From: Clostridia bacterium
GTDB taxonomy: Bacteria > Bacillota > Clostridia > Oscillospirales > Acutalibacteraceae
Assembly (NCBI GenBank): GCA_017410195.1
Contig: JAFQRF010000015.1
Location: 31,553 to 95,552 of the forward strand
Length of the DNA: 64,000 nt
Direction: 5' to 3'
The first letter of the stretch is position 1, and every line of letters starts with the position of its first letter. The notes below the pieces were generated by a model. The model had not been told where the DNA came from. It searched no databases and saw only the letters and a program-made list of their open reading frames with translations. Shown here in pieces: positions 27,251 to 39,427 of the stretch. The translations under genes were made by a program, and so were the position numbers.

Positions 27251-27270
27251 AAAGTATCAATAGAATATGT

Positions 27271-27366
27271 CCTTATTAAGAGTGGCAGAGGGACAGGCCC
27301 TTTGAAGCCCGGCAACCTGTGTTATGCAAGGTGCTAAATCCTGCGGCGTAATGCCGGAAAATAAGG
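27271..27366 (+). ncRNA. SAM-I (S-box) riboswitch
   Basis: CTTATTAAGAG.GG.AGAGGGAC.GGCCC.TTGAAGCCCGGCAACC...AAGGTGCTAAATCC..AATAAGG; P1 CCTTATT/AATAAGG; downstream of a promoter and upstream of metK. Confidence 0.95.
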
Positions 27367-27373
27367 TGTTTTC

Positions 27374-27447: not shown

Positions 27448-28593
27448 ATGGCAAACTACTTATTCACATCCGAATCCGTAACCGGCGGACATCCCGATAA
27501 AATCTGTGATCAGATTTCGGATGCCGTTCTTGATGCTATTCTCGCTCAGGATCCCATGGGCAGAGTTGCCTGCGAAACCTGCTGCACGACCGGTATGGTT
27601 CTTGTTATGGGTGAAATTACAACAACAGCAGATATCGATATCCCCAAAATCGTAAGAGAAACAGTTAATGAAATCGGCTATAACAATGCTGAATACGGCT
27701 TTGACTGCAACACCTGTGCTGTTATGACAGCTCTTGACAAGCAGTCGGGCGACATCGCAATGGGTGTTGACAGACTCGGCGCAGGCGACCAGGGTATGAT
27801 GTTCGGCTTCGCTTGCGACGAAACTCCCGAGCTTATGCCACTTCCCATTTCACTTGCTCACAAACTTTGCGCAAAGCTTACCGAAGTGCGCAGAGACGGA
27901 ACTCTCGGTTATCTCAGACCTGACGGTAAGAGCCAGGTGAGCGTTGAATATGACGAAAACAACAACCCCGTAAGAGTTGATACCGTTGTTATTTCTTCCC
28001 AGCATTCAGCCGATGTTACTCTTGAGCAGATCAGAGCAGACATCATTGAAAAGGTAATTAAGCCCGTTATTCCCGCACCAATGCTTGATGAAAACACAAA
28101 GTATCACATTAACCCCACCGGCAGATTTGTAACCGGCGGACCTCAGGGAGACAGCGGACTTACAGGCAGAAAGATAATTGTTGATACTTACGGCGGCTAT
28201 GCCCGTCACGGCGGCGGAGCATTCAGCGGCAAGGACCCCACAAAGGTTGACCGTTCGGCGGCTTATGCGGCACGTTATGTTGCAAAAAATATTGTTGCTG
28301 CCGGTCTTGCAAAGAAATGTGAGGTTGAGCTTGCATACGCAATCGGTGTTGAACAGCCCGTATCCGTATTTGTTGATACCTTCGGAACGGGTAAAATCGC
28401 CGATACCGATATTTCGGCAATCATTAATGAGCTTTTTGACCTCAGTCCTGCAGGCATCATCAAGACTCTTGACCTGAGAAGACCCATATATAAGCAGGTT
28501 GCAGCGCTCGGCCACATCGGCAGAACAGATATCGATCTTCCTTGGGAAAAGACCGACAGAATTGAGGATATCAAAAACGCAGCGAAATTATAA
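27448..28593 (+). CDS. metK: S-adenosylmethionine synthetase
   Basis: [41 protein letters not shown]. Confidence 0.99.
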
Positions 28594-28780: not shown

Positions 28781-30445
28781 GTGAAAAAGAATTATGTAAT
28801 CAAATATCTGTCGGGCGGAAAGACCGTTACATCAAACGCAACGGAGAATGAATTTTATTCGCTTGATATTTCGGATGCAGACGGAAGATATACAGTAACT
28901 CTCAATCCCAAAAAGGATTTTGAGCTTGTTGATTTTTACGTTGAAATGCCTTATGAATTCAAGGCGGGCGACAAATTCTTCGCAAACGGCTATCAGTCAT
29001 GGACCAACACAAGAGAATTTACTGCTGACGAAATCAGAAAGGGAACAATAAAGCTTTCTCATATCCATCCTTATCTCAGACACTATGCAAGCATCACGAG
29101 CGATGACAGAATTGTTGAATATACTGAAAAGCCCGGCGAATTTCACAGCCACTGTTATACATATATCAGAAACGGCGAAAAGATGAAGCTCTGGGGTTCG
29201 CTCTGTGAAAGCACGGGTTATACATATTTCAAAGTCGGAATGAACAGCAACTATTTCTCAATCCGCAAGGATGTTCTCGGCAAGAAAGTGACCGCATCGC
29301 TTAAGATTTTTGATATTGTTTATTTTGAAGGAACATATGACGAAGTTTTCGATAACTACTTCGGAATGTTCAAGATGCCCGAAACAAGAAAGGGCGCAAT
29401 GAGCGGTTATACCTCATGGTATAACTACTTCCAGAAGATTGACGAAAAAATCATTCTCCGCGACCTTGACGGTCTTGATCCCGCAAAGGAAGAAACATCT
29501 ATTTTTCAGATTGACGACGGCTATGAACCCTATGTCGGCGACTGGCTTGACTATTGCGACAAGTTCCCCAACGGCATGAAATATATTGCCGATAAGATTC
29601 ACGACAAGGGTTACCTCGCTGGCATCTGGATTGCTCCCTTCAGCTGCCAGAAGATTTCAAGAATCGCAAAAGAGCATCCCGATTGGCTCATCAAGGATGA
29701 AAACGGCAAACCTCAGCTCGGCTGTATTGCCTGGGGCGGTGCATATACTCTCGATATCTACAACGAAGAAGCAAGAGCTTATATCAAAAAAGTGTTTGAC
29801 GTTGTTCTCAATGAGTGGGGATACGATATGGTTAAGCTCGACTTCCTTTACAGCGAATGTGTAACTCCAAGAAACGGCAAGAGCAGAGGCGAAATCATGC
29901 ACGAAGCAATGGCTCTTCTCAGAGAATGTGTCGGCGATAAGCTTCTCCTCGGCTGCGGTATTCCCATGAGCGCCGCATACGGCGTCTGCGATGCCTGCCG
30001 TATCAGCTGTGACGTTGATCTTACATACAAGGGCAAGATTTACAACCACATCCACGTCAGCAACGAAATCCTCAGCGCACAGAGCGCAATCAACAACTCC
30101 GTATTCCGCCGCCATCTCAACGGCAGAGTATTCATGAATGACCCCGATGTATTCTTCCTGAGAAACGATAATCTTAAGTTTACCTGGGAACAGAAGAAGC
30201 TTCTCGCAAGAATCAATAATCTTTGCGGTAACGTTCTCTTCGTTTCCGATAACGCAGGCGATTACGATGCCGTGCAGATGGGACTTCTCAAGAAGTATTT
30301 CAAGAAGACCGACGAAAAGATTACATCCGCAGAATATGTAACAAAGGATGTTATCGAAATCAAGATTGATGAAAACGGCGTGAAAAAGGAGCTGGTTTTC
30401 AACATCAAGACAGGTCAGATTATCAAAGACGGCGAAATCAGATAA
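28781..30445 (+). CDS. Alpha-galactosidase (GH36-like)
   Basis: GTG start; GYTSWYNY, FQIDDGYE, WIAPF, VKLDFL, RISCD, NDPD; no signal peptide. Confidence 0.85.
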   Translation: MKKNYVIKYLSGGKTVTSNATENEFYSLDISDADGRYTVTLNPKKDFELVDFYVEMPYEFKAGDKFFANGYQSWTNTREFTADEIRKGTIKLSHIHPYLRHYASITSDDRIVEYTEKPGEFHSHCYTYIRNGEKMKLWGSLCESTGYTYFKVGMNSNYFSIRKDVLGKKVTASLKIFDIVYFEGTYDEVFDNYFGMFKMPETRKGAMSGYTSWYNYFQKIDEKIILRDLDGLDPAKEETSIFQIDDGYEPYVGDWLDYCDKFPNGMKYIADKIHDKGYLAGIWIAPFSCQKISRIAKEHPDWLIKDENGKPQLGCIAWGGAYTLDIYNEEARAYIKKVFDVVLNEWGYDMVKLDFLYSECVTPRNGKSRGEIMHEAMALLRECVGDKLLLGCGIPMSAAYGVCDACRISCDVDLTYKGKIYNHIHVSNEILSAQSAINNSVFRRHLNGRVFMNDPDVFFLRNDNLKFTWEQKKLLARINNLCGNVLFVSDNAGDYDAVQMGLLKKYFKKTDEKITSAEYVTKDVIEIKIDENGVKKELVFNIKTGQIIKDGEIR

Positions 30446-30456
30446 AAGGGATATTT

Positions 30457-30490
30457 GTAGGGGACGACCTCAGCGTCGTCCCGTTTTTTT
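30457..30490 (+). repeat. GTAG-family REP-like palindrome that doubles as the terminator of the galactosidase gene
   Basis: GTAG then GGGACGAC-CTCAGC-GTCGTCCC, then T-run. Confidence 0.6.
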
Positions 30491-30545
30491 ACCCAAAAAA
30501 AAAACGCCGAAACCGATAACGGCTTCAACGGAGAAAACATATTAT

Positions 30546-30792
30546 AAAAAGAGAAATAGCCCTTGACTGATGTTTCTTTACACAATCAATCAAGGGCTAT
30601 TTCTGAGAACTCTTAATATCTAACATCTTTGGATAACCTCTCTTTCTGCAATATTGTCCAATCTTAAATTATCCGATTTTCAGTTTTTCGTTTCTTTTAA
30701 GATTGTAGGTTTGAGACTTTTAAAATTCTTATAAAATTTAAAATTTTGCTGTCTCAGGTTTTTACCTTCTCATTGGTATCACCCTTTCCTTG
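30546..30792 (-). ncRNA. Candidate about 245-nt structured RNA carrying a 3-codon ORF (MRR)
   Basis: TTGAAA-17-TATATT promoter with TG extension (30826-30798); strong SD then ATG AGA AGG TAA; internal stems; 20-bp terminator stem 30552-30604 with U-tract. Confidence 0.45.
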
Positions 30793-30912
30793 ACTATAAT
30801 ATAGCACAGATTTTTGCTGTTTTCAAGATGGAAATTTGTACAAAATTGTTGCTTTTCACTTATGTAAAACATAGAAATTTGTTAAATATGCATACAAATT
30901 TCGGAAATCATA

Positions 30913-30941
30913 TTGACATTGAGCAGATAATGAGTTATCAT
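30913..30941 (+). promoter_or_regulatory. Orphan SigA-like promoter with an overlapping palindrome
   Basis: TTGACA(30913-30918)-17 bp-TATCAT(30936-30941); TAATGA-GTTA-TCATTA palindrome across the -10. Confidence 0.5.
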
Positions 30942-30980
30942 TAAAATGTTGGGGGGTTGCAGAACCCCGCTTTTTTATGC

Positions 30981-31018
30981 AAAAAATGGCTTGTGTGGAT
31001 TGACAGTCCGCACAAGCC
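30981..31018. terminator. Terminator of the malQ-EEP operon (probably bidirectional)
   Basis: GGCTTGTGTGGA...TCCGCACAAGCC stem with A6 on the left and a T-rich right flank. Confidence 0.8.
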
Positions 31019-31027
31019 TTATTTTAT

Positions 31028-31786
31028 TTGTTAAATTTCAACATCCGCATAAATTGCGTTGTGGTCGGAGTAAAAATCTCCGTCAACCATTTTGTTGATA
31101 ACCTTGAAGCTGACGGGCTTTACCGTTGCTTCGTCAACAAAAACGAAGTCTATTCTTTCGTGAATCTCTTCGGGTCTGAAACCGTGGAAGGTATAGCATT
31201 CGTCGCTGTCGGGAGCGAGCTTTCTTGCATCTTTCATATTACCGCTGACCATTGTGTTGTAGCAGTCGGAATTCTGATAGACATTGAAATCGCCCGTGCA
31301 GACAACGGGTACACCGCCGAATGAAGCCGCTTTTTCCTGAATCATCTTTGCACCGTTGATCTGTGCGATTCTGCCGACGTGGTCAAGATGAGTGTTAAAA
31401 TGAATATAGGATTTTCCGTTTTCTTTGTCAGTGAGCTTAACGTATGTTGCAATTCTTGTGCAAGCGGAGTCCCAACCCTTTGAAGGCTTTTCGGGAGTTT
31501 CGGAAATCCAGAAATTTCCGCTGTCGCTTGCTTCAAACTTATCTTTTTTATAGAAAACAGCAGCGAATTCACCGTCTTTGTCGCCGTCATCTCTTCCGAC
31601 GCCTACAAACGAATATTCGGGAAGATTTTTGCAGAGTTCCTGCATCCATTCCCAATGGGCTTCCTGAACGCCGAAGGAATCGGGGTCAGCCTCTTTTATG
31701 ATGCTTATAACCTTTGGTACACGCTTTTTCCAGACCCTCTCGCCCTTGCCTGCGCAGAGAAGATTGAATGAAAGAATTCTGTACAT
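31028..31786 (-). CDS. Endonuclease/exonuclease/phosphatase (EEP) family protein, cytoplasmic
   Basis: ILSFNL, FGVQE, NTHLDH, TGDFN, IDFVF, SDHNAI. Confidence 0.9.
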
Positions 31787-32715
31787 CAGTTTGTACCTCC
31801 GTTAAAGAGAGTCATTTCAACGGTGAGAGGGAAGTGGTCGGATGCGAGGATATGATGGATGAAATCGGAATTGATTGAATAGGATTTTACAGATGAGCAG
31901 TAGCCGTTGACAAAAACAAAGTCAATGGGTTTGTTGTCGGGCATGATAACGTGATAGCCGTGGTAGGTTGCATGGTCATCATATTCTGCCGCCATGTATT
32001 TTGTATCTTTAAGACCTGTTTTGAGGATTGTTTCGTAGTTATACGAGCCTTCGGGGAAGTTGAAGTCGCCTGTCACAACAACGGGAATATCTGGCGCGAT
32101 TTCAGCGATATAAGCCGAAATGAGTGCGATTGATTCAGCCTGAGCAACGCTGCCTACGTGGTCAAGGTGAGTGTTGAAGTGAGCGTATACAAAGCCTGTT
32201 GTCTTATCTTTGAGGATTGCGTATGAGGTTATTCTGTTGCAGGCAGCATCCCAACCCATCGAGGGAACATCGGGAGTTTCGGAAAGCCAGAAGAAGCCTG
32301 AATCAACAAGCTCATACTTGTCCTTGAGATAGAAAATCGCACTTGATTCACCTTCGGAAATGCCGTCATCTCTGTACTTGGCTATGTAAGCATAATCGGA
32401 AAGACCTGCAGCGATGCCTTCAACCCAGTCTTTGTCTGCTTCCTGCAGACCGAATGAATCGGGAACTCCGTTTTGCAGGGTTTCAACGATAAGAGGAAGT
32501 CTGTTTTCGTTAGATCTGAGACCGTCGCCGCTGATTTTGACGTTATATGACATGATTTTCATATCCTGCGAAAGTGCGGCATTTGCAACAGGATTGGGAT
32601 TTACATTCTTGAGCGCCATTGTGGGGTCAATGCCTTCAACAGGGTTTGCGGGAACGAAAGTTGCGATAAGTGCTGTGAAAAAAGCAACAATTTTTTGCAT
32701 TAATTTAAAATACAT
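31786..32715 (-). CDS. EEP family protein with N-terminal signal/anchor
   Basis: Hydrophobic N-terminus KIVAFFTALIATF, MSYNV, GLQE, NTHLDH, TGDFN, IDF, SDHFP. Confidence 0.9.
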   Translation of the reverse strand: MYFKLMQKIVAFFTALIATFVPANPVEGIDPTMALKNVNPNPVANAALSQDMKIMSYNVKISGDGLRSNENRLPLIVETLQNGVPDSFGLQEADKDWVEGIAAGLSDYAYIAKYRDDGISEGESSAIFYLKDKYELVDSGFFWLSETPDVPSMGWDAACNRITSYAILKDKTTGFVYAHFNTHLDHVGSVAQAESIALISAYIAEIAPDIPVVVTGDFNFPEGSYNYETILKTGLKDTKYMAAEYDDHATYHGYHVIMPDNKPIDFVFVNGYCSSVKSYSINSDFIHHILASDHFPLTVEMTLFNGGTN

Positions 32716-32739
32716 ATTTATTACTCCTTTATATTAAGT

Positions 32740-33636
32740 TTATCCGTTAATCATTGTCATTGTTGAAACAACAGGGTGATGGTCGGATGCATAAATTCCA
32801 TTGACCTTTTCGCTGACAACGGCGTAGCTCTCAACCTCACTTACAAATGCGTTTGCAAATACGAAGTCAATGGGTCTGTCTTTTTCAACAAGGTCGGAAT
32901 AGCCGTGATATGTAACATTGCCGCCGCTTGCGGTTTTTGCAAGATATTTTGTATCTTTGAGACCGCTTTCAAGCACTCTTGCATACATATCTTCGCCTTC
33001 ATAGTCATTGAGGTCACCGGTTAAAACAACGGGAATATCGGGTGCGATTTCAGCGATTTTTTCTGCGATTACCGCAACGGATTCGAGCCTTGCAATAACT
33101 CCGAGATGGTCAAAGTGAGCGTTGAAGTGAGCATAGGTGAAGCCGGTATCTTTATCTTTGAGAACAGCGTAGGTGCAAATTCTGTTGAACATTGCATCCC
33201 AGCCCCTTGAAGCTTTCTCAGGAGTCTTTGAAAGCCAGAATGTACCCGAATCAAGCAGATCATACTTATCTTTTTTATAGAAAACGGGGCTTGCTTCACC
33301 GCCGCCTTTGTTTGAATCTCTGCCGATTCCGACGTAAGCATATTCTGTCATAAGAGCAGGAAGTCTTTCCATCCAGCCTTCGTCAGCTTCCTGCAGACCG
33401 AATGAATCAGGATTATATTTGCGGATGTTTTCGGCAACAAGCGGAGTTCTGTTTTCGGGTGATTTTTCGCCTGAGCCTTTGATGTAAACGTTGTAACTCA
33501 TAACGGTTATGCTCTGCGAAAGCTTTGCCTCCGGAAGTGTTTCAGGATTCACCTGAGCCACGGGAGTCGGGGTGTAGAAAAGCATCATAATAGCTGTCAC
33601 CATTGCAAAAAACGCGCTGATAATTTTGTCAATCAT
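32740..33636 (-). CDS. EEP family protein with N-terminal signal/anchor
   Basis: KIISAFFAMVTAIMMLF, MSYNV, GLQE, NAHFDH, TGDLN, IDF, SDHHP. Confidence 0.9.
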   Translation of the reverse strand: MIDKIISAFFAMVTAIMMLFYTPTPVAQVNPETLPEAKLSQSITVMSYNVYIKGSGEKSPENRTPLVAENIRKYNPDSFGLQEADEGWMERLPALMTEYAYVGIGRDSNKGGGEASPVFYKKDKYDLLDSGTFWLSKTPEKASRGWDAMFNRICTYAVLKDKDTGFTYAHFNAHFDHLGVIARLESVAVIAEKIAEIAPDIPVVLTGDLNDYEGEDMYARVLESGLKDTKYLAKTASGGNVTYHGYSDLVEKDRPIDFVFANAFVSEVESYAVVSEKVNGIYASDHHPVVSTMTMING

Positions 33637-38564: not shown

Positions 38565-38689
38565 CTTCCATTTTAAATTGATTTCAGTATATCACAAGAA
38601 AAAATAAAAATAAAGTAATTTTATAAAAAACTTGATATTTTCGTCAGCAGATATTAGAATATAAGAAATAAGACTTCGGAGGGGATAAT

Positions 38690-39427
38690 ATGTCAAAAGC
38701 AGTTGAATATTTTGAAAACATACAGAAAATCATGAGCCGAATTATGACGGAGCAAATGGAGAATATAGAAAAAGCCGCAAGAGCGGTTGCAGATACTCTT
38801 GAAAACGGCGGCAGAGTACACGCTTTCGGAACAGGTCATTCGCATATGCTTGCCGAAGAGATTTTTTACCGTGCAGGCGGACTTGTAAATGTCAATCCCA
38901 TTCTCGAATCGGGTCTTATGCTCCACGAAAGCGCCTCAAAAAGCACTGCTCTTGAAAGACTTGAAGGTTACGGCGAAATTATTTTTGACTTTAACAATAT
39001 AAACGAAAAGGATATACTTTTCCTTTTTTCAAATTCAGGCAGAAACGGTGTTGCGATTGACCTTGCCCTCATCGCAAAAGAAAGAGGCGTCAAAACCGTT
39101 GTCATAACAAATATGCTTCACACAATGCAGGGCAAATCAAGGCATTCAAGCGGTAAAAAGCTTTATGAAGCCGGTGATATCGTGATTGATAACTGCGGAT
39201 GCATCGGCGATGCATCGATGACGATTGAAAAAATCGGCAGGAATGTTGCACCCACCTCAACTGCAGCGGGTGCGGCAATTCTCAACGCAATCGAAGCAAG
39301 AGCGGTCGAAATTATGGTTGAGGAAGGTTATATGCCCGAGGTATTCTCAAGCAGCAATGTTGACGGCGGCGACGAGATAAACGAGGCTTACATCAAAAAA
39401 TACAGCGGGGAGATTAAAGCATTATGA
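38690..39427 (+). CDS. SIS-domain protein (UPF0309, Streptomyces NagS-like)
   Basis: FGTGHS, FYRAGGL, ALER, SNSGRN, SRH.SG, IGDA, SNVDGG. Confidence 0.8.
   Translation: MSKAVEYFENIQKIMSRIMTEQMENIEKAARAVADTLENGGRVHAFGTGHSHMLAEEIFYRAGGLVNVNPILESGLMLHESASKSTALERLEGYGEIIFDFNNINEKDILFLFSNSGRNGVAIDLALIAKERGVKTVVITNMLHTMQGKSRHSSGKKLYEAGDIVIDNCGCIGDASMTIEKIGRNVAPTSTAAGAAILNAIEARAVEIMVEEGYMPEVFSSSNVDGGDEINEAYIKKYSGEIKAL

Follow-up and report, generated by a model that had tools for sequence, protein, structure and literature searches.

An unannotated unit lies on the minus strand of a 580-bp gap between convergent genes in the window, the whole 64,000-nt stretch of the Clostridia bacterium contig JAFQRF010000015.1 that was analysed. 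The gene downstream of the unit is a convergent melibiase-family hydrolase. Read in the direction of transcription, the features of the locus are:

30860 to 30878, minus strand: distal upstream box, ATTTCTATG then TTTTACATAA, from the promoter alignment of relatives
30835 to 30845, minus strand: proximal operator-like palindrome TTTTGTACAAA, from the promoter alignment of relatives
30798 to 30826, minus strand: SigA/sigma-70-type promoter TTGAAA-17-TGcTATATT with an extended −10, from a promoter scan
30791, minus strand: predicted transcription start, an A 7 nt past the −10, from promoter geometry only
30778 to 30790, minus strand: extended Shine-Dalgarno SD1, AGGAAAGGGTGAT, conserved in genus and order
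30762 to 30773, minus strand: ORF1, ATG AGA AGG TAA (MRR-stop), a start-stop-like mini-ORF, from family comparison
30712 to 30758, minus strand: hairpin P1 (CCTGAGAC ... GTCTCA), from compensatory changes
30659 to 30705, minus strand: hairpin P2 (CAATCTTAAA / TTTAAGATTG), from compensatory changes
30636 to 30647, minus strand: second extended Shine-Dalgarno SD2, AGAAAGAGAGGT, from 101 diverse copies
30597 to 30626, minus strand: ORF2, MLDIKSSQK, 9 codons and a stop, the conserved core of the family, from family comparison
30546 to 30604, minus strand: terminator T1, a 19-bp stem with an apical GUAAAGAAAC loop and a U-tract, from covariation
30495 to 30530, minus strand: second intrinsic terminator T2, CGTTGAAGCCGTTATCGGTTTCGGCG then T10, from a terminator scan

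The sequence features named in the original prediction were all located on the minus strand at the coordinates it gave, and among them only a proposed pseudoknot lacks comparative support. T2, which the terminator scan placed at 30530-30505, and the two upstream operator-like boxes were absent from it.

The TG-extended TTGAAA-17-TATATT promoter is present as described and was also recovered by the promoter scan, where it scores 10 of 12 matches with the TG present. Its −35 hexamer, TTGAAA, occupies 30826-30821 and is separated by a 17-nt spacer from the −10 hexamer at 30803-30798. The hexamers, the TG and the spacing are all kept in about 100 relatives. The 247-nt predicted RNA folds with −65.9 kcal/mol (z = −6.35), a value that none of 200 shuffles equalled; the transcript would be about 250 nt long, or about 300 nt upon read-through of T1 to T2.

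Two operator-like boxes lie upstream of this promoter. The TGTACA core of the proximal palindrome has its centre 13 bp before the −35 hexamer begins, and the palindrome is kept across the order (7.7 of 10 matches). In the distal box, TTTTACATAA is a degenerate copy of the proximal palindrome, with its centre 24 bp further upstream. When 98 family promoters were aligned on the −10, an AAtTCT motif and a TTTGTACAAA-like box proved conserved in the distal region, the latter with 7.0 of 10 matches versus 4.1 at a control position. TGTACA boxes presumably fit neither the Spo0A box nor the LytTR direct repeats of AgrA and VirR, and the two palindromes, spaced 24 bp apart, rather resemble paired operators of the kind bound by a helix-turn-helix dimer.

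The unit is one member of a family. The window's genome has a second copy, with 71% identity, more than 190 copies occur in other genomes, and a search of one genome per species gave at least 120 loci. Within the window's genus, 15 genomes carry the element and 22 lack it. At the level of the order, a structure-and-sequence covariance model of the 3′ end matches 75 of 401 genomes, and at the level of the class 32 of 400. The distribution is patchy across gut Clostridia and spans many genera, and uncultured gut Oscillospirales often carry it, among them Acutalibacteraceae, Oscillospiraceae and Faecousia. Cultured carriers include Oscillibacter valericigenes An907 (L035) and Brotocaccenecus cirricatena CLA-AA-H272 (L105), whose copies have an 8-codon variant of ORF2 (MLDIKNHG). 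Phage, viral-contig and plasmid collections contained zero copies, and ideas of a mobile element or of phage communication were dropped for that reason. Rfam 15 at gathering threshold returned only a SAM riboswitch (27270-27367) from the window, and a permissive Rfam scan of 30400-31100 only sub-threshold look-alikes: VrrA, at 29.3 bits versus 50, and microRNA precursor models.

Both copies in the window's genome face convergent genes. Across the family, 65 downstream neighbours share the strand of the unit and 66 lie opposite, and the upstream neighbours are split 64 to 64. No enriched neighbour family or partner gene, be it a modifying enzyme, an exporter or a receptor, was found among 148 elements. 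Random orientation together with unconserved neighbours indicates a free-standing gene rather than a leader, and a cis-regulatory leader was rejected on the strength of that orientation. Comparison of genomes thus shows the unit to be a conserved stand-alone gene, and it upholds the original view of an orphan, structured small transcript with its own promoter and terminator.

Only one base of the predicted RNA precedes SD1, and in all aligned promoters this sequence begins 1-8 nt past the predicted start site. The block GGTGATACC-R-ATG is invariant within the genus and near-invariant within the order; GGTGATACCAATG also serves as the ribosome-binding site of ordinary genes of the window's genome. 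Complementarity of both Shine-Dalgarno sequences was judged against what we take to be the canonical Firmicute 16S tail, the present assembly containing no 16S tail. The strong ribosome-binding site and the 3-codon MRR frame are where they had been placed, and ORF1 has the makeup of a minigene or start-stop, with a Shine-Dalgarno, a start, at most 2-3 sense codons and a stop. By comparison, ORF1 is conserved in length only: it has 2-3 codons in 99 of 103 relatives, ends in TAA (88), TGA (8) or TAG (7) and varies in its residues (MYR 27, MNR 17, MRR 16, MKR 7, plus others). MRR-stop, whose conservation had been suggested as a check, is therefore one variant among several. The tandem AGA-AGG Arg codons had been put forward as a sensing element; codon 2 is TAC, AAC, AGA, TTC or AAA in relatives, and Arg-codon sensing was rejected on that variability. 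A CsrA sponge was likewise rejected, as the GGA motifs are unconserved and the 5′ purine tract ranges from AAAGAGG to GAAAGGG. Some members (L109, L117, L118, L139) carry tandem 5′ modules. More than two ribosome-binding modules is not a rule of the family, since most members (70 of 105) have exactly two and an apparent third is mostly a doubled ATG at ORF2.

The 5′ arm of P1 begins 4 nt past the ORF1 stop, and TGAGAC (30756-30751) pairs with GTCTCA (30717-30712) around an A-rich loop of variable length, with indels among relatives. In P2, CAATCTTAAA (30705-30696) pairs with TTTAAGATTG (30668-30659). Both of these predicted stems are kept by compensatory changes: in 27 relatives P1 is 82% paired, with both sides changed in 3 of 6 pairs, and P2 is 90% paired, with both sides changed in 7 of 10. 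Pairing of the GGATAAT/GTTATCC pseudoknot, in contrast, reaches 63% in 27 relatives and 64.7% in shuffles, with scores as high in 482 of 500 shuffles; this part of the original prediction falls away. RNAalifold recovers P2, T1 and short local pairings only. Partition-function folding gave no clear signal of Shine-Dalgarno accessibility, neither site being above average.

SD2 and the 9-residue ORF2 also lie where they had been predicted. Across 101 diverse copies, almost all positions of SD2 reach 90% conservation or more, and the 8-11 nt between it and the ATG are free to vary in sequence. ORF2 has 9 codons in 164 of 188 copies (87%). It uses all three stops (TAA 54, TGA 48, TAG 14), and the stop always sits at the base of the covarying T1 stem. 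The family consensus peptide is MLDIKSEQK, differing from the window copy at one residue, and the identical consensus peptide is present in other orders of Clostridia. Conservation is concentrated in codons 1-5 and relaxed thereafter; constraint is loose at positions 4 (I/T/N) and 6-9 (S/N/I/T; etc.), and the last residue is K in 95 and N in 1 of 116 unique 9-codon ORFs. The main type begins M-L-(D/E)-x-K and a subfamily M-L-E-P. Across the family, Leu is written TTA, TTG, CTA, CTC or CTG, Asp GAT or GAC and Lys AAG or AAA, with TTA, GAT and AAG dominant, and replacements are conservative (L to I or V, D to E). The synonymous fraction is 0.200 in frame versus 0.095 and 0.134 out of frame. No long protein frame continues from ORF2 in the family copies examined, the longest having 15 codons. 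One locus, L140, exceeds this maximum and is a chance pattern match without a terminator. A literature search for the peptide strings gave no match. Comparison thus shows an ORF2 that is conserved at the amino-acid level, with a fixed length and a near-invariant Shine-Dalgarno, and a small RNA without meaningful coding content is at odds with this, ORF2 being the most conserved part of the family.

The long terminator hairpin with a U-tract, originally given as 20 bp with 19 of 20 paired, is present at 30604-30552, followed by the U-tract. Its 5′ arm holds the last two codons of ORF2 and the stop, and the stem begins at codon 8 in nearly all copies. In 101 sequences T1 is 94.3% paired and 17 of its 19 pairs have changed on both sides, which none of 500 shuffles reach; the ORF2 stop codon and its partner bases in T1 change together. 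The search for relatives and covariation that had been proposed for the unit thus returned more than the single locus, with compensatory changes in P1, P2 and T1. The loop motif GUAAAGAAAC is conserved, with AGUGGUCAG in its place in other lineages. After an interval of 15-30 nt, unconserved in sequence, T2 is kept in loci of the window's type despite differing downstream genes, and a T2-like hairpin within 90 nt after T1 occurs in 89 of 191 copies versus 17 of 125 control segments.

The closest parallel is mccA, whose likeness is one of architecture only: an ultra-short ORF with a strong Shine-Dalgarno before it and an intrinsic terminator directly after it, the length of the ORF being kept more than its sequence. 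A ribosome that binds the 7-codon mccA ORF brings about termination at the terminator next to it and gives the short RNA great stability (PMC4231749). That coupling of ribosome binding to termination and exceptional RNA stability is what we propose, by analogy, for the present unit. The differences are several. ORF2 has 9 codons rather than 7. The C-terminal Asn of the mccA peptide, which MccB needs for adenylation, is absent here, Lys being usual. No mccB (ThiF/E1-like) or other biosynthesis gene lies near the unit, whose context is random over 148 elements. This family has an extra 5′ mini-ORF and a structured leader of 100-400 nt, and it is without phage or plasmid copies.

Other systems resemble parts of the unit. 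Dual-function small RNAs, such as S. aureus RNAIII/hld and B. subtilis SR1/SR1P, are also stand-alone, structured and terminator-ended RNAs with a small ORF, which in the present case is predicted to be translated; the known ones encode 26-50 residues versus 9 here, and no sequence or Rfam relationship links them to the unit. A type I toxin-antitoxin was rejected, the 9-residue, hydrophilic product differing from a hydrophobic toxin of about 20-60 residues with its antisense RNA. ORF1 has the form of the phage lambda bar minigenes, which are toxic in peptidyl-tRNA hydrolase-deficient cells, and of Escherichia coli start-stops, namely a strong Shine-Dalgarno, an AUG, 1-2 sense codons and a stop. 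Unlike the bar minigenes, ORF1 is a conserved part of a chromosomal gene, and its AGA-AGG pair is unconserved. The cryIIIA STAB-SD element is a strong-Shine-Dalgarno 5′ stabiliser against RNase J1 that needs no start codon, whereas SD1 leads into a conserved AUG that is followed by 1-2 sense codons and a stop. In the same way, ribosome binding at a strong Shine-Dalgarno stabilises the Bacillus subtilis hbs mRNA against RNase J1 decay (PMC5737220). With hbs and STAB-SD the unit shares a very strong Shine-Dalgarno within a few bases of the predicted 5′ end, and by analogy a ribosome bound at SD1 would bury that end and block RNase J1.

We favour, at about an even chance, a free-standing micro-gene in which a SigA-type promoter drives an RNA of about 250 nt whose conserved cargo would be a ribosomally translated nonapeptide. 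ORFs of 2-8 codons are translated reiteratively, and the rounds per mRNA are 71, 30 and 6 for 7, 11 and 15 codons (PMC6495379). ORF2 is near the range of these measurements, and with its very strong SD2 and 9-codon frame a tethered ribosome could retranslate it repeatedly, as measured for the 7-codon mccA message, giving a high peptide yield; we propose that the length of ORF2 is conserved because reiterative translation needs a short frame. The 5′ module, with its strong Shine-Dalgarno, AUG, 1-2 sense codons and stop, would keep a ribosome parked at the RNA 5′ end, where it could shield the short message from 5′-to-3′ decay by RNase J1. T1 would protect the 3′ end and T2 would catch its read-through. 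A terminating ribosome would have to melt T1, so that translation and T1 folding may be coupled. The two TTTGTACAAA boxes would place the gene under a dedicated DNA-binding regulator. The nonapeptide could be an intracellular regulator or signal.

Several features sit less easily with a plain peptide gene, which needs neither a structured leader of 100-400 nt nor conserved T1 loop motifs (GUAAAGAAAC). Shine-Dalgarno accessibility that is not above average and the lack of a linked partner gene also count against it, as does the fact that a free 9-residue peptide is normally degraded fast. The A-tract of the terminator, and not the peptide, may account for the last two codons of ORF2, and the dominance of TTA, GAT and AAG may reflect some constraint on the RNA.

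One alternative is a cis-acting translation sensor, a reading that we regard as possible but rather doubtful. Here ORF2 would be a regulatory frame of the leader type, whose conserved N-terminal residues would cause pausing, stalling or abortion of translation within the frame, the cue being a small molecule, a cation, a translation factor or an antibiotic, and the position of the ribosome would decide T1 folding, the ratio of T1 and T2 isoforms and the lifetime of an RNA that acts in trans. The geometry is fixed, with a 9-codon frame and a T1 stem that starts at codon 8 in nearly all copies, the second terminator is enriched, and the T1 loop motifs are conserved beyond the needs of a terminator. 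Conservation in codons 1-5 followed by relaxation is also seen in short arrest peptides, ErmDL and the 9-codon leaders of cat-86 and cmlA among them. Leader-peptide attenuators (cat-86, the 9-codon cmlA, erm, trp/his, mgtL) share with the unit a tiny ORF that overlaps a downstream hairpin, as well as N-terminal conservation and, in some members, acidic residues or Pro near the N-terminus. N-terminal acidic residues and Pro destabilise or pause ribosomes, and MgtL (MEPDP...) senses by this means (bioRxiv 10.1101/2021.02.02.429294; PMC11162784; PMC11282234), so the acidic and Pro residues of ORF2 would suit MgtL-type pausing. In the attenuators, however, the hairpin precedes a regulated gene; here there is none, neighbour orientation is random, and the hairpin is followed by a second terminator instead of a ribosome-binding site or coding sequence. 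The T1-T2 interval is unconserved, so the isoforms would differ by one hairpin only. RNAalifold finds no conserved antiterminator pairing among its helices, and no target is known for an RNA acting in trans. Of the original choice between a small RNA and a ribosome-sensing element, what stands is the stand-alone structured RNA with ribosome engagement at its centre; the emphasis on MRR and its Arg codons and the pseudoknot do not.

The strong Shine-Dalgarno sequences allow another use of the ribosome, as the captive of a decoy or sponge. Together with the tiny frames, they would capture and recycle 30S or 70S particles or the 16S 3′ tail, tuning the free-ribosome pool or protecting idle ribosomes, and the peptide would be secondary. 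Ordinary ribosome-binding sites are far less conserved than these two extended Shine-Dalgarno sequences, the length-only conservation of ORF1 fits a holding site, four members have two tandem 5′ modules, and a frame of 2-8 codons keeps its ribosome for many rounds of translation (PMC6495379). We nevertheless consider this reading unlikely. It fails to explain why ORF2 keeps its amino acids while Leu, Asp and Lys change between synonymous codons, the modules number just two in most members, and 1-3 gene copies could titrate a meaningful share of ribosomes only if the RNA were extremely abundant.

The operator-like boxes raise the prospect of a leaderless RRNPP-type quorum signal, in which the nonapeptide or a fragment of it would bind an XRE-HTH/TPR regulator that recognises the TTTGTACAAA boxes and auto-induces the gene. 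There is a precedent in Streptococcus pyogenes, where the 8-residue leaderless peptide SIP is sensed by the Rgg-type regulator RopB. Two palindromic boxes just upstream of the −35, a multi-copy gene whose paralogues within a genome differ at peptide positions 4 and 6-9, and a divergent HTH_3 protein with a weak TPR match beside the second copy and its orthologues L002, L016 and L018 would all fit. The wider comparison makes this quite improbable. Of 148 elements, only 10 have an XRE-TPR gene within 4 kb; close orthologues of this gene occur in 7 genomes of the genus, 1 of them without the element, while 9 element-bearing genomes have no XRE-TPR, and these mismatched phyletic patterns leave the neighbour unsupported as an obligatory partner. 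The peptide is hydrophilic and without an export signal, and no exporter is linked, ABC exporters being near 13 of 148 elements, by rough estimate about the background rate.

That the unit is a non-functional leftover, either what remains of a gene's decayed 5′ end or a promoter and terminator brought together by chance, is almost certainly wrong and already refuted by the comparative data, in keeping with the original judgement against a gene remnant: one architecture of promoter, two ribosome-binding sites, two frames of conserved length and covarying hairpins recurs in more than 190 copies across many genera, and ORF2 never runs into a long protein frame in the copies examined.

Two more speculative extensions can be drawn. 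It is conceivable, though we think it improbable, that the unit as a whole senses translation status as a free-standing device, with one ribosome parked on ORF1 and a second cycling on ORF2. The M-L-(D/E)-x-K nascent chain would pause or abort on a cellular cue, and occupancy would set T1 folding, lifetime and 3′ isoform, giving a read-out in trans of ribosome or factor availability; to our knowledge, no stand-alone sensor of this kind has been described. On a par with it stands the idea that reiterative translation might flood the cell, or else the gut lumen, with a signal in the form of an N-formylated nonapeptide.

If translated, as the nonapeptide micro-gene that we favour requires, ORF2 would be among the shortest conserved genes known, alongside the 7-codon mccA. 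Neither gene callers nor RNA libraries detect the unit. The conserved operator-like boxes suggest that it has some dedicated regulator. The architecture, in which a start-stop-guarded 5′ end, a Shine-Dalgarno-tethered ORF, a stop inside the terminator and a back-up terminator are combined, suggests a general Firmicute solution for expressing ultra-short ORFs, and it may offer a natural stand-alone system for reiterative translation, ribosome end-protection and the coupling of translation to termination.

A minus-strand RNA unit of about 250 nt, here called the element, carries two short frames (ORF1 and ORF2, with Shine–Dalgarno sequences SD1 and SD2), two hairpins (P1 and P2) and two terminators (T1 and T2), in the following setting:

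28781-30445, plus strand: melibiase-family gene, convergent with the element and flanking it
30826-30798, minus strand: promoter TTGAAA-17-TGcTATATT, seen in the sequence and by promoter scan
30773-30762, minus strand: ORF1, ATG AGA AGG TAA, preceded by AGGAAAGGGTGAT (sequence)
30758-30712, minus strand: hairpin P1 (sequence)
30705-30659, minus strand: hairpin P2 (sequence)
30647-30636, minus strand: second ribosome-binding site AGAAAGAGAGGT, upstream of ORF2 (sequence)
30626-30597, minus strand: ORF2, 9 codons, MLDIKSSQK (sequence)
30604-30552, minus strand: T1, long terminator hairpin with U-tract (sequence)
30530-30505, minus strand: T2, second intrinsic terminator, 3′ of T1 (terminator scan)
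31031-31786, minus strand: endonuclease/exonuclease/phosphatase-family gene, the other flank

Every feature listed in the original prediction was recovered on the minus strand where it had been placed, and T2 was overlooked there. The transcription start is a predicted one. The RNA folds much more strongly than shuffled controls (z = −6.35), and an Rfam scan of the element returned zero matches. A second copy lies on another contig of the same genome (71% identity), its ends conserved and its middle diverged and rich in indels. Of 37 genomes in the genus, 15 yielded full-length copies by BLAST, frequently two in the same genome, and clustered or tandem arrangements are common. At least 120 loci match a 20-base degenerate pattern of the 3′ module in GTDB (one genome per species); those listed all bear Clostridia-type labels except one contig labelled Bacteroidaceae, and include Oscillospiraceae, Acutalibacteraceae, Faecousia, Oscillibacter valericigenes, Brotocaccenecus and others. 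R1, a covariance model built on the 3′ module, matches 75 of 401 Oscillospirales genomes (32 of 179 genera) and, of 400 drawn from across the class Clostridia, matches 32, other orders included; these counts, like all those for the family, draw on phylogenetically related sequences. The spread is patchy and, within the organism's own family, confined to its genus; copies are absent from the 2.9 million viral contigs, phage records and plasmids searched. On this sequence record, the element belongs to a gene family and is no chance occurrence.

The most conserved features cluster around ORF2. SD2 (AGAAAGAGAGGT) is at least 90% conserved at nearly all positions, and the spacer to the ATG is free in sequence and 8–11 nt long. 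Complementarity of both Shine–Dalgarno sequences was assessed with the canonical Firmicute 16S tail, the host's own being absent from the assembly. ORF2 has 9 codons in 164 of 188 copies and 7–11 in the remainder. Its stop varies (TAA 54, TGA 48, TAG 14 among 116 unique 9-codon versions), and the T1 3′-arm bases paired with the stop change together with it. Among covariance-model matches, which are unbiased by the degenerate pattern, conserved residues use synonymous codons (Leu TTA/TTG/CTA/CTC/CTG, Asp GAT/GAC, Lys AAG/AAA) and replacements are conservative (L to I/V, D to E). The synonymous fraction of codon differences is 0.200 in the ORF2 frame versus 0.095 and 0.134 for the two alternative frames, and non-synonymous changes are milder in frame. 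MLDIKSEQK recurs unchanged in other orders, alongside insertion variants (MTLDTKITEK, MKLDIKTEEK, MTLDFKSEQK) and a subfamily with MLEPASSMK, MIEPKSFGK or MVEPKIEQK. Positions 4 and 6–9 are less constrained; codons 8–9 coincide with the terminator A-tract and so may be doubly constrained. Taken together, ORF2 looks like the translated core of the family.

The 5′ arm of T1 holds the last two ORF2 codons and the stop. Over 101 sequences T1 is 94.3% paired, and both partners have changed in 17 of its 19 pairs, a level that 0 of 500 shuffles attain, although such shuffle-based figures overstate independence. A T2-like hairpin follows within 90 nt of T1 in 89 of 191 copies, versus 17 of 125 control segments.

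At the 5′ end, the predicted RNA begins with a purine-rich extended Shine–Dalgarno, GGTGATACC-R-ATG, and ORF1 stops after one or two sense codons past the ATG in 99 of 103 copies (TAA 88, TGA 8, TAG 7). Its residues vary (MYR 27, MNR 17, MRR 16, MKR 7, others); more diverged members carry GGTACAGNCCAATG with MNK, MRK or MYF, and the MLEPA... subfamily apparently lacks the 5′ AUG. As far as the alignments go, ORF1 is conserved in length only. The proposal of an orphan sRNA or ribosome-sensing element is partly right: this is a real orphan structured RNA built on ribosome binding, but its key element is the 9-codon gene rather than the MRR frame.

The middle is about 60 nt long in the shortest members and exceeds 400 nt in the longest. 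P1 and P2 form in the genus and covary (87.7% paired overall), with both sides changed in 7 of 10 P2 pairs; the GGATAAT/GTTATCC pseudoknot suggested earlier is not conserved among relatives. The MLEPA.. subfamily (loci L229, L228, L233 and L237, from other genomes in the order) has a conserved middle domain of its own, in which a covarying hairpin is capped by a CCGUAG loop (e.g. CACACCGUAGUGUGG versus GCGCCGUAGCGCAGG) and accompanied by a GGCUCA motif. One lineage (L045, L114, L147 and L145, in other genomes) has an additional mid-element ORF of 26–52 codons, MPKSKYQENENTKSYP... in the first three and a different 30–31-codon frame, MRGRRLSQ..., in L145.

Across the family, the promoter is near-consensus with an extended −10. 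Upstream lies a pair of TTTGTACAAA-like palindromes spaced 24 bp centre to centre, the proximal one centred 13 bp upstream of the −35 hexamer start, and a conserved AAtTCT motif lies farther out than both. These operator-like boxes suggest that the element would be under dedicated transcriptional control. An XRE-HTH/TPR gene adjoins the second copy in the same genome; as a candidate regulator it finds little support, since just 10 of 148 elements have it nearby and its phyletic pattern does not follow theirs. On the opposite strand, a promoter-like site (TTGGTA-16-TATAAT, 30773-30800, plus strand, 10/12 matches) would direct transcription across the operator boxes, away from the RNA. It arises where the conserved GATACCAA and the palindromic −10 region are read in reverse complement, and is probably a side effect of sequence conservation; divergent transcription from it is conceivable.

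Several other features were noted. A SAM riboswitch (RF00162, 85.5 bits, 27270-27367, plus strand) immediately precedes a 381-aa ORF (27448-28593) that we take from its sequence to be metK (S-adenosylmethionine synthetase), an ordinary, known arrangement. Within 30913-31018, a plus-strand promoter-like TTGACA-17-TATCAT precedes a pair of terminator-like hairpins (30953-30968 and 30988-31018); the latter serves the endonuclease/exonuclease/phosphatase-family gene as a bidirectional terminator. That gene (31031-31786, by Pfam match) is one of three tandem ORFs upstream of the element (31031-33636, minus strand), the other two alike by eye; the N-termini suggest export for two of the three and a cytoplasmic location for the third. 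A third promoter with an identical TGCTATATTATAGTC −10/start region, on contig C69 of the same genome (~38650-39080, plus strand; L004 1440-1870), would produce an RNA of ~350 nt that ends in a terminator and lacks a long ORF, and in which an internal GGCGATACCCGATG module opens a 15-codon frame (MYIAEHQLAAAETDR). R1 gave no match at this locus, which may be a distant relative or an independent small-RNA gene.

Flanking sequence was available for 148 elements, and their neighbours show no meaningful recurrence of any protein family. The closest gene downstream shares the element's strand in 65 cases and opposes it in 66; upstream neighbours split 64/64. This random orientation, with no recurring neighbour family, excludes a cis-acting leader. 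In a single case without general association (L023 37-1283), a copy lies directly 3′ of what, from the sequences alone, is presumably an IS3-type transposase pair.

Among systems whose mechanism has been worked out, the mccA message comes closest: a 7-codon ORF after a strong Shine–Dalgarno precedes an intrinsic terminator, and ribosome binding leads to termination and a very stable short RNA (PMC4231749). On ORFs of 2–8 codons the ribosome stays bound and translates reiteratively, with 71, 30 and 6 rounds per mRNA for 7, 11 and 15 codons (PMC6495379); this fall in rounds with length would account for the conserved length of ORF2. By analogy, SD2 and ORF2 would form a reiterative-translation unit yielding a nonapeptide, and SD1 and ORF1 a 5′ cap occupied by a ribosome. 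When on the AUG, that ribosome would cover the predicted 5′ end in its entirety, and once at the stop codon it would also cover the P1 5′ arm. T1 would be a 3′ protector that the terminating ribosome must unwind, and T2 a fail-safe terminator.

ORF2 could instead be a cis-acting translation sensor, consistent with its conserved N-terminal chain, its fixed distance to T1 and an N-terminal acidic residue/Pro reminiscent of MgtL and intrinsic ribosome destabilisation (bioRxiv 10.1101/2021.02.02.429294, PMC11162784), but a sensor has no regulated output here. The nonapeptide could also be a leaderless signalling peptide. The RNA could also be a decoy that holds ribosomes, but this would leave the peptide-level conservation of ORF2 unexplained, and most members have only two modules. 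Judged by sequence, the family is new, and so is its architecture, as a variant within the class of ultra-short ORFs on small RNAs.
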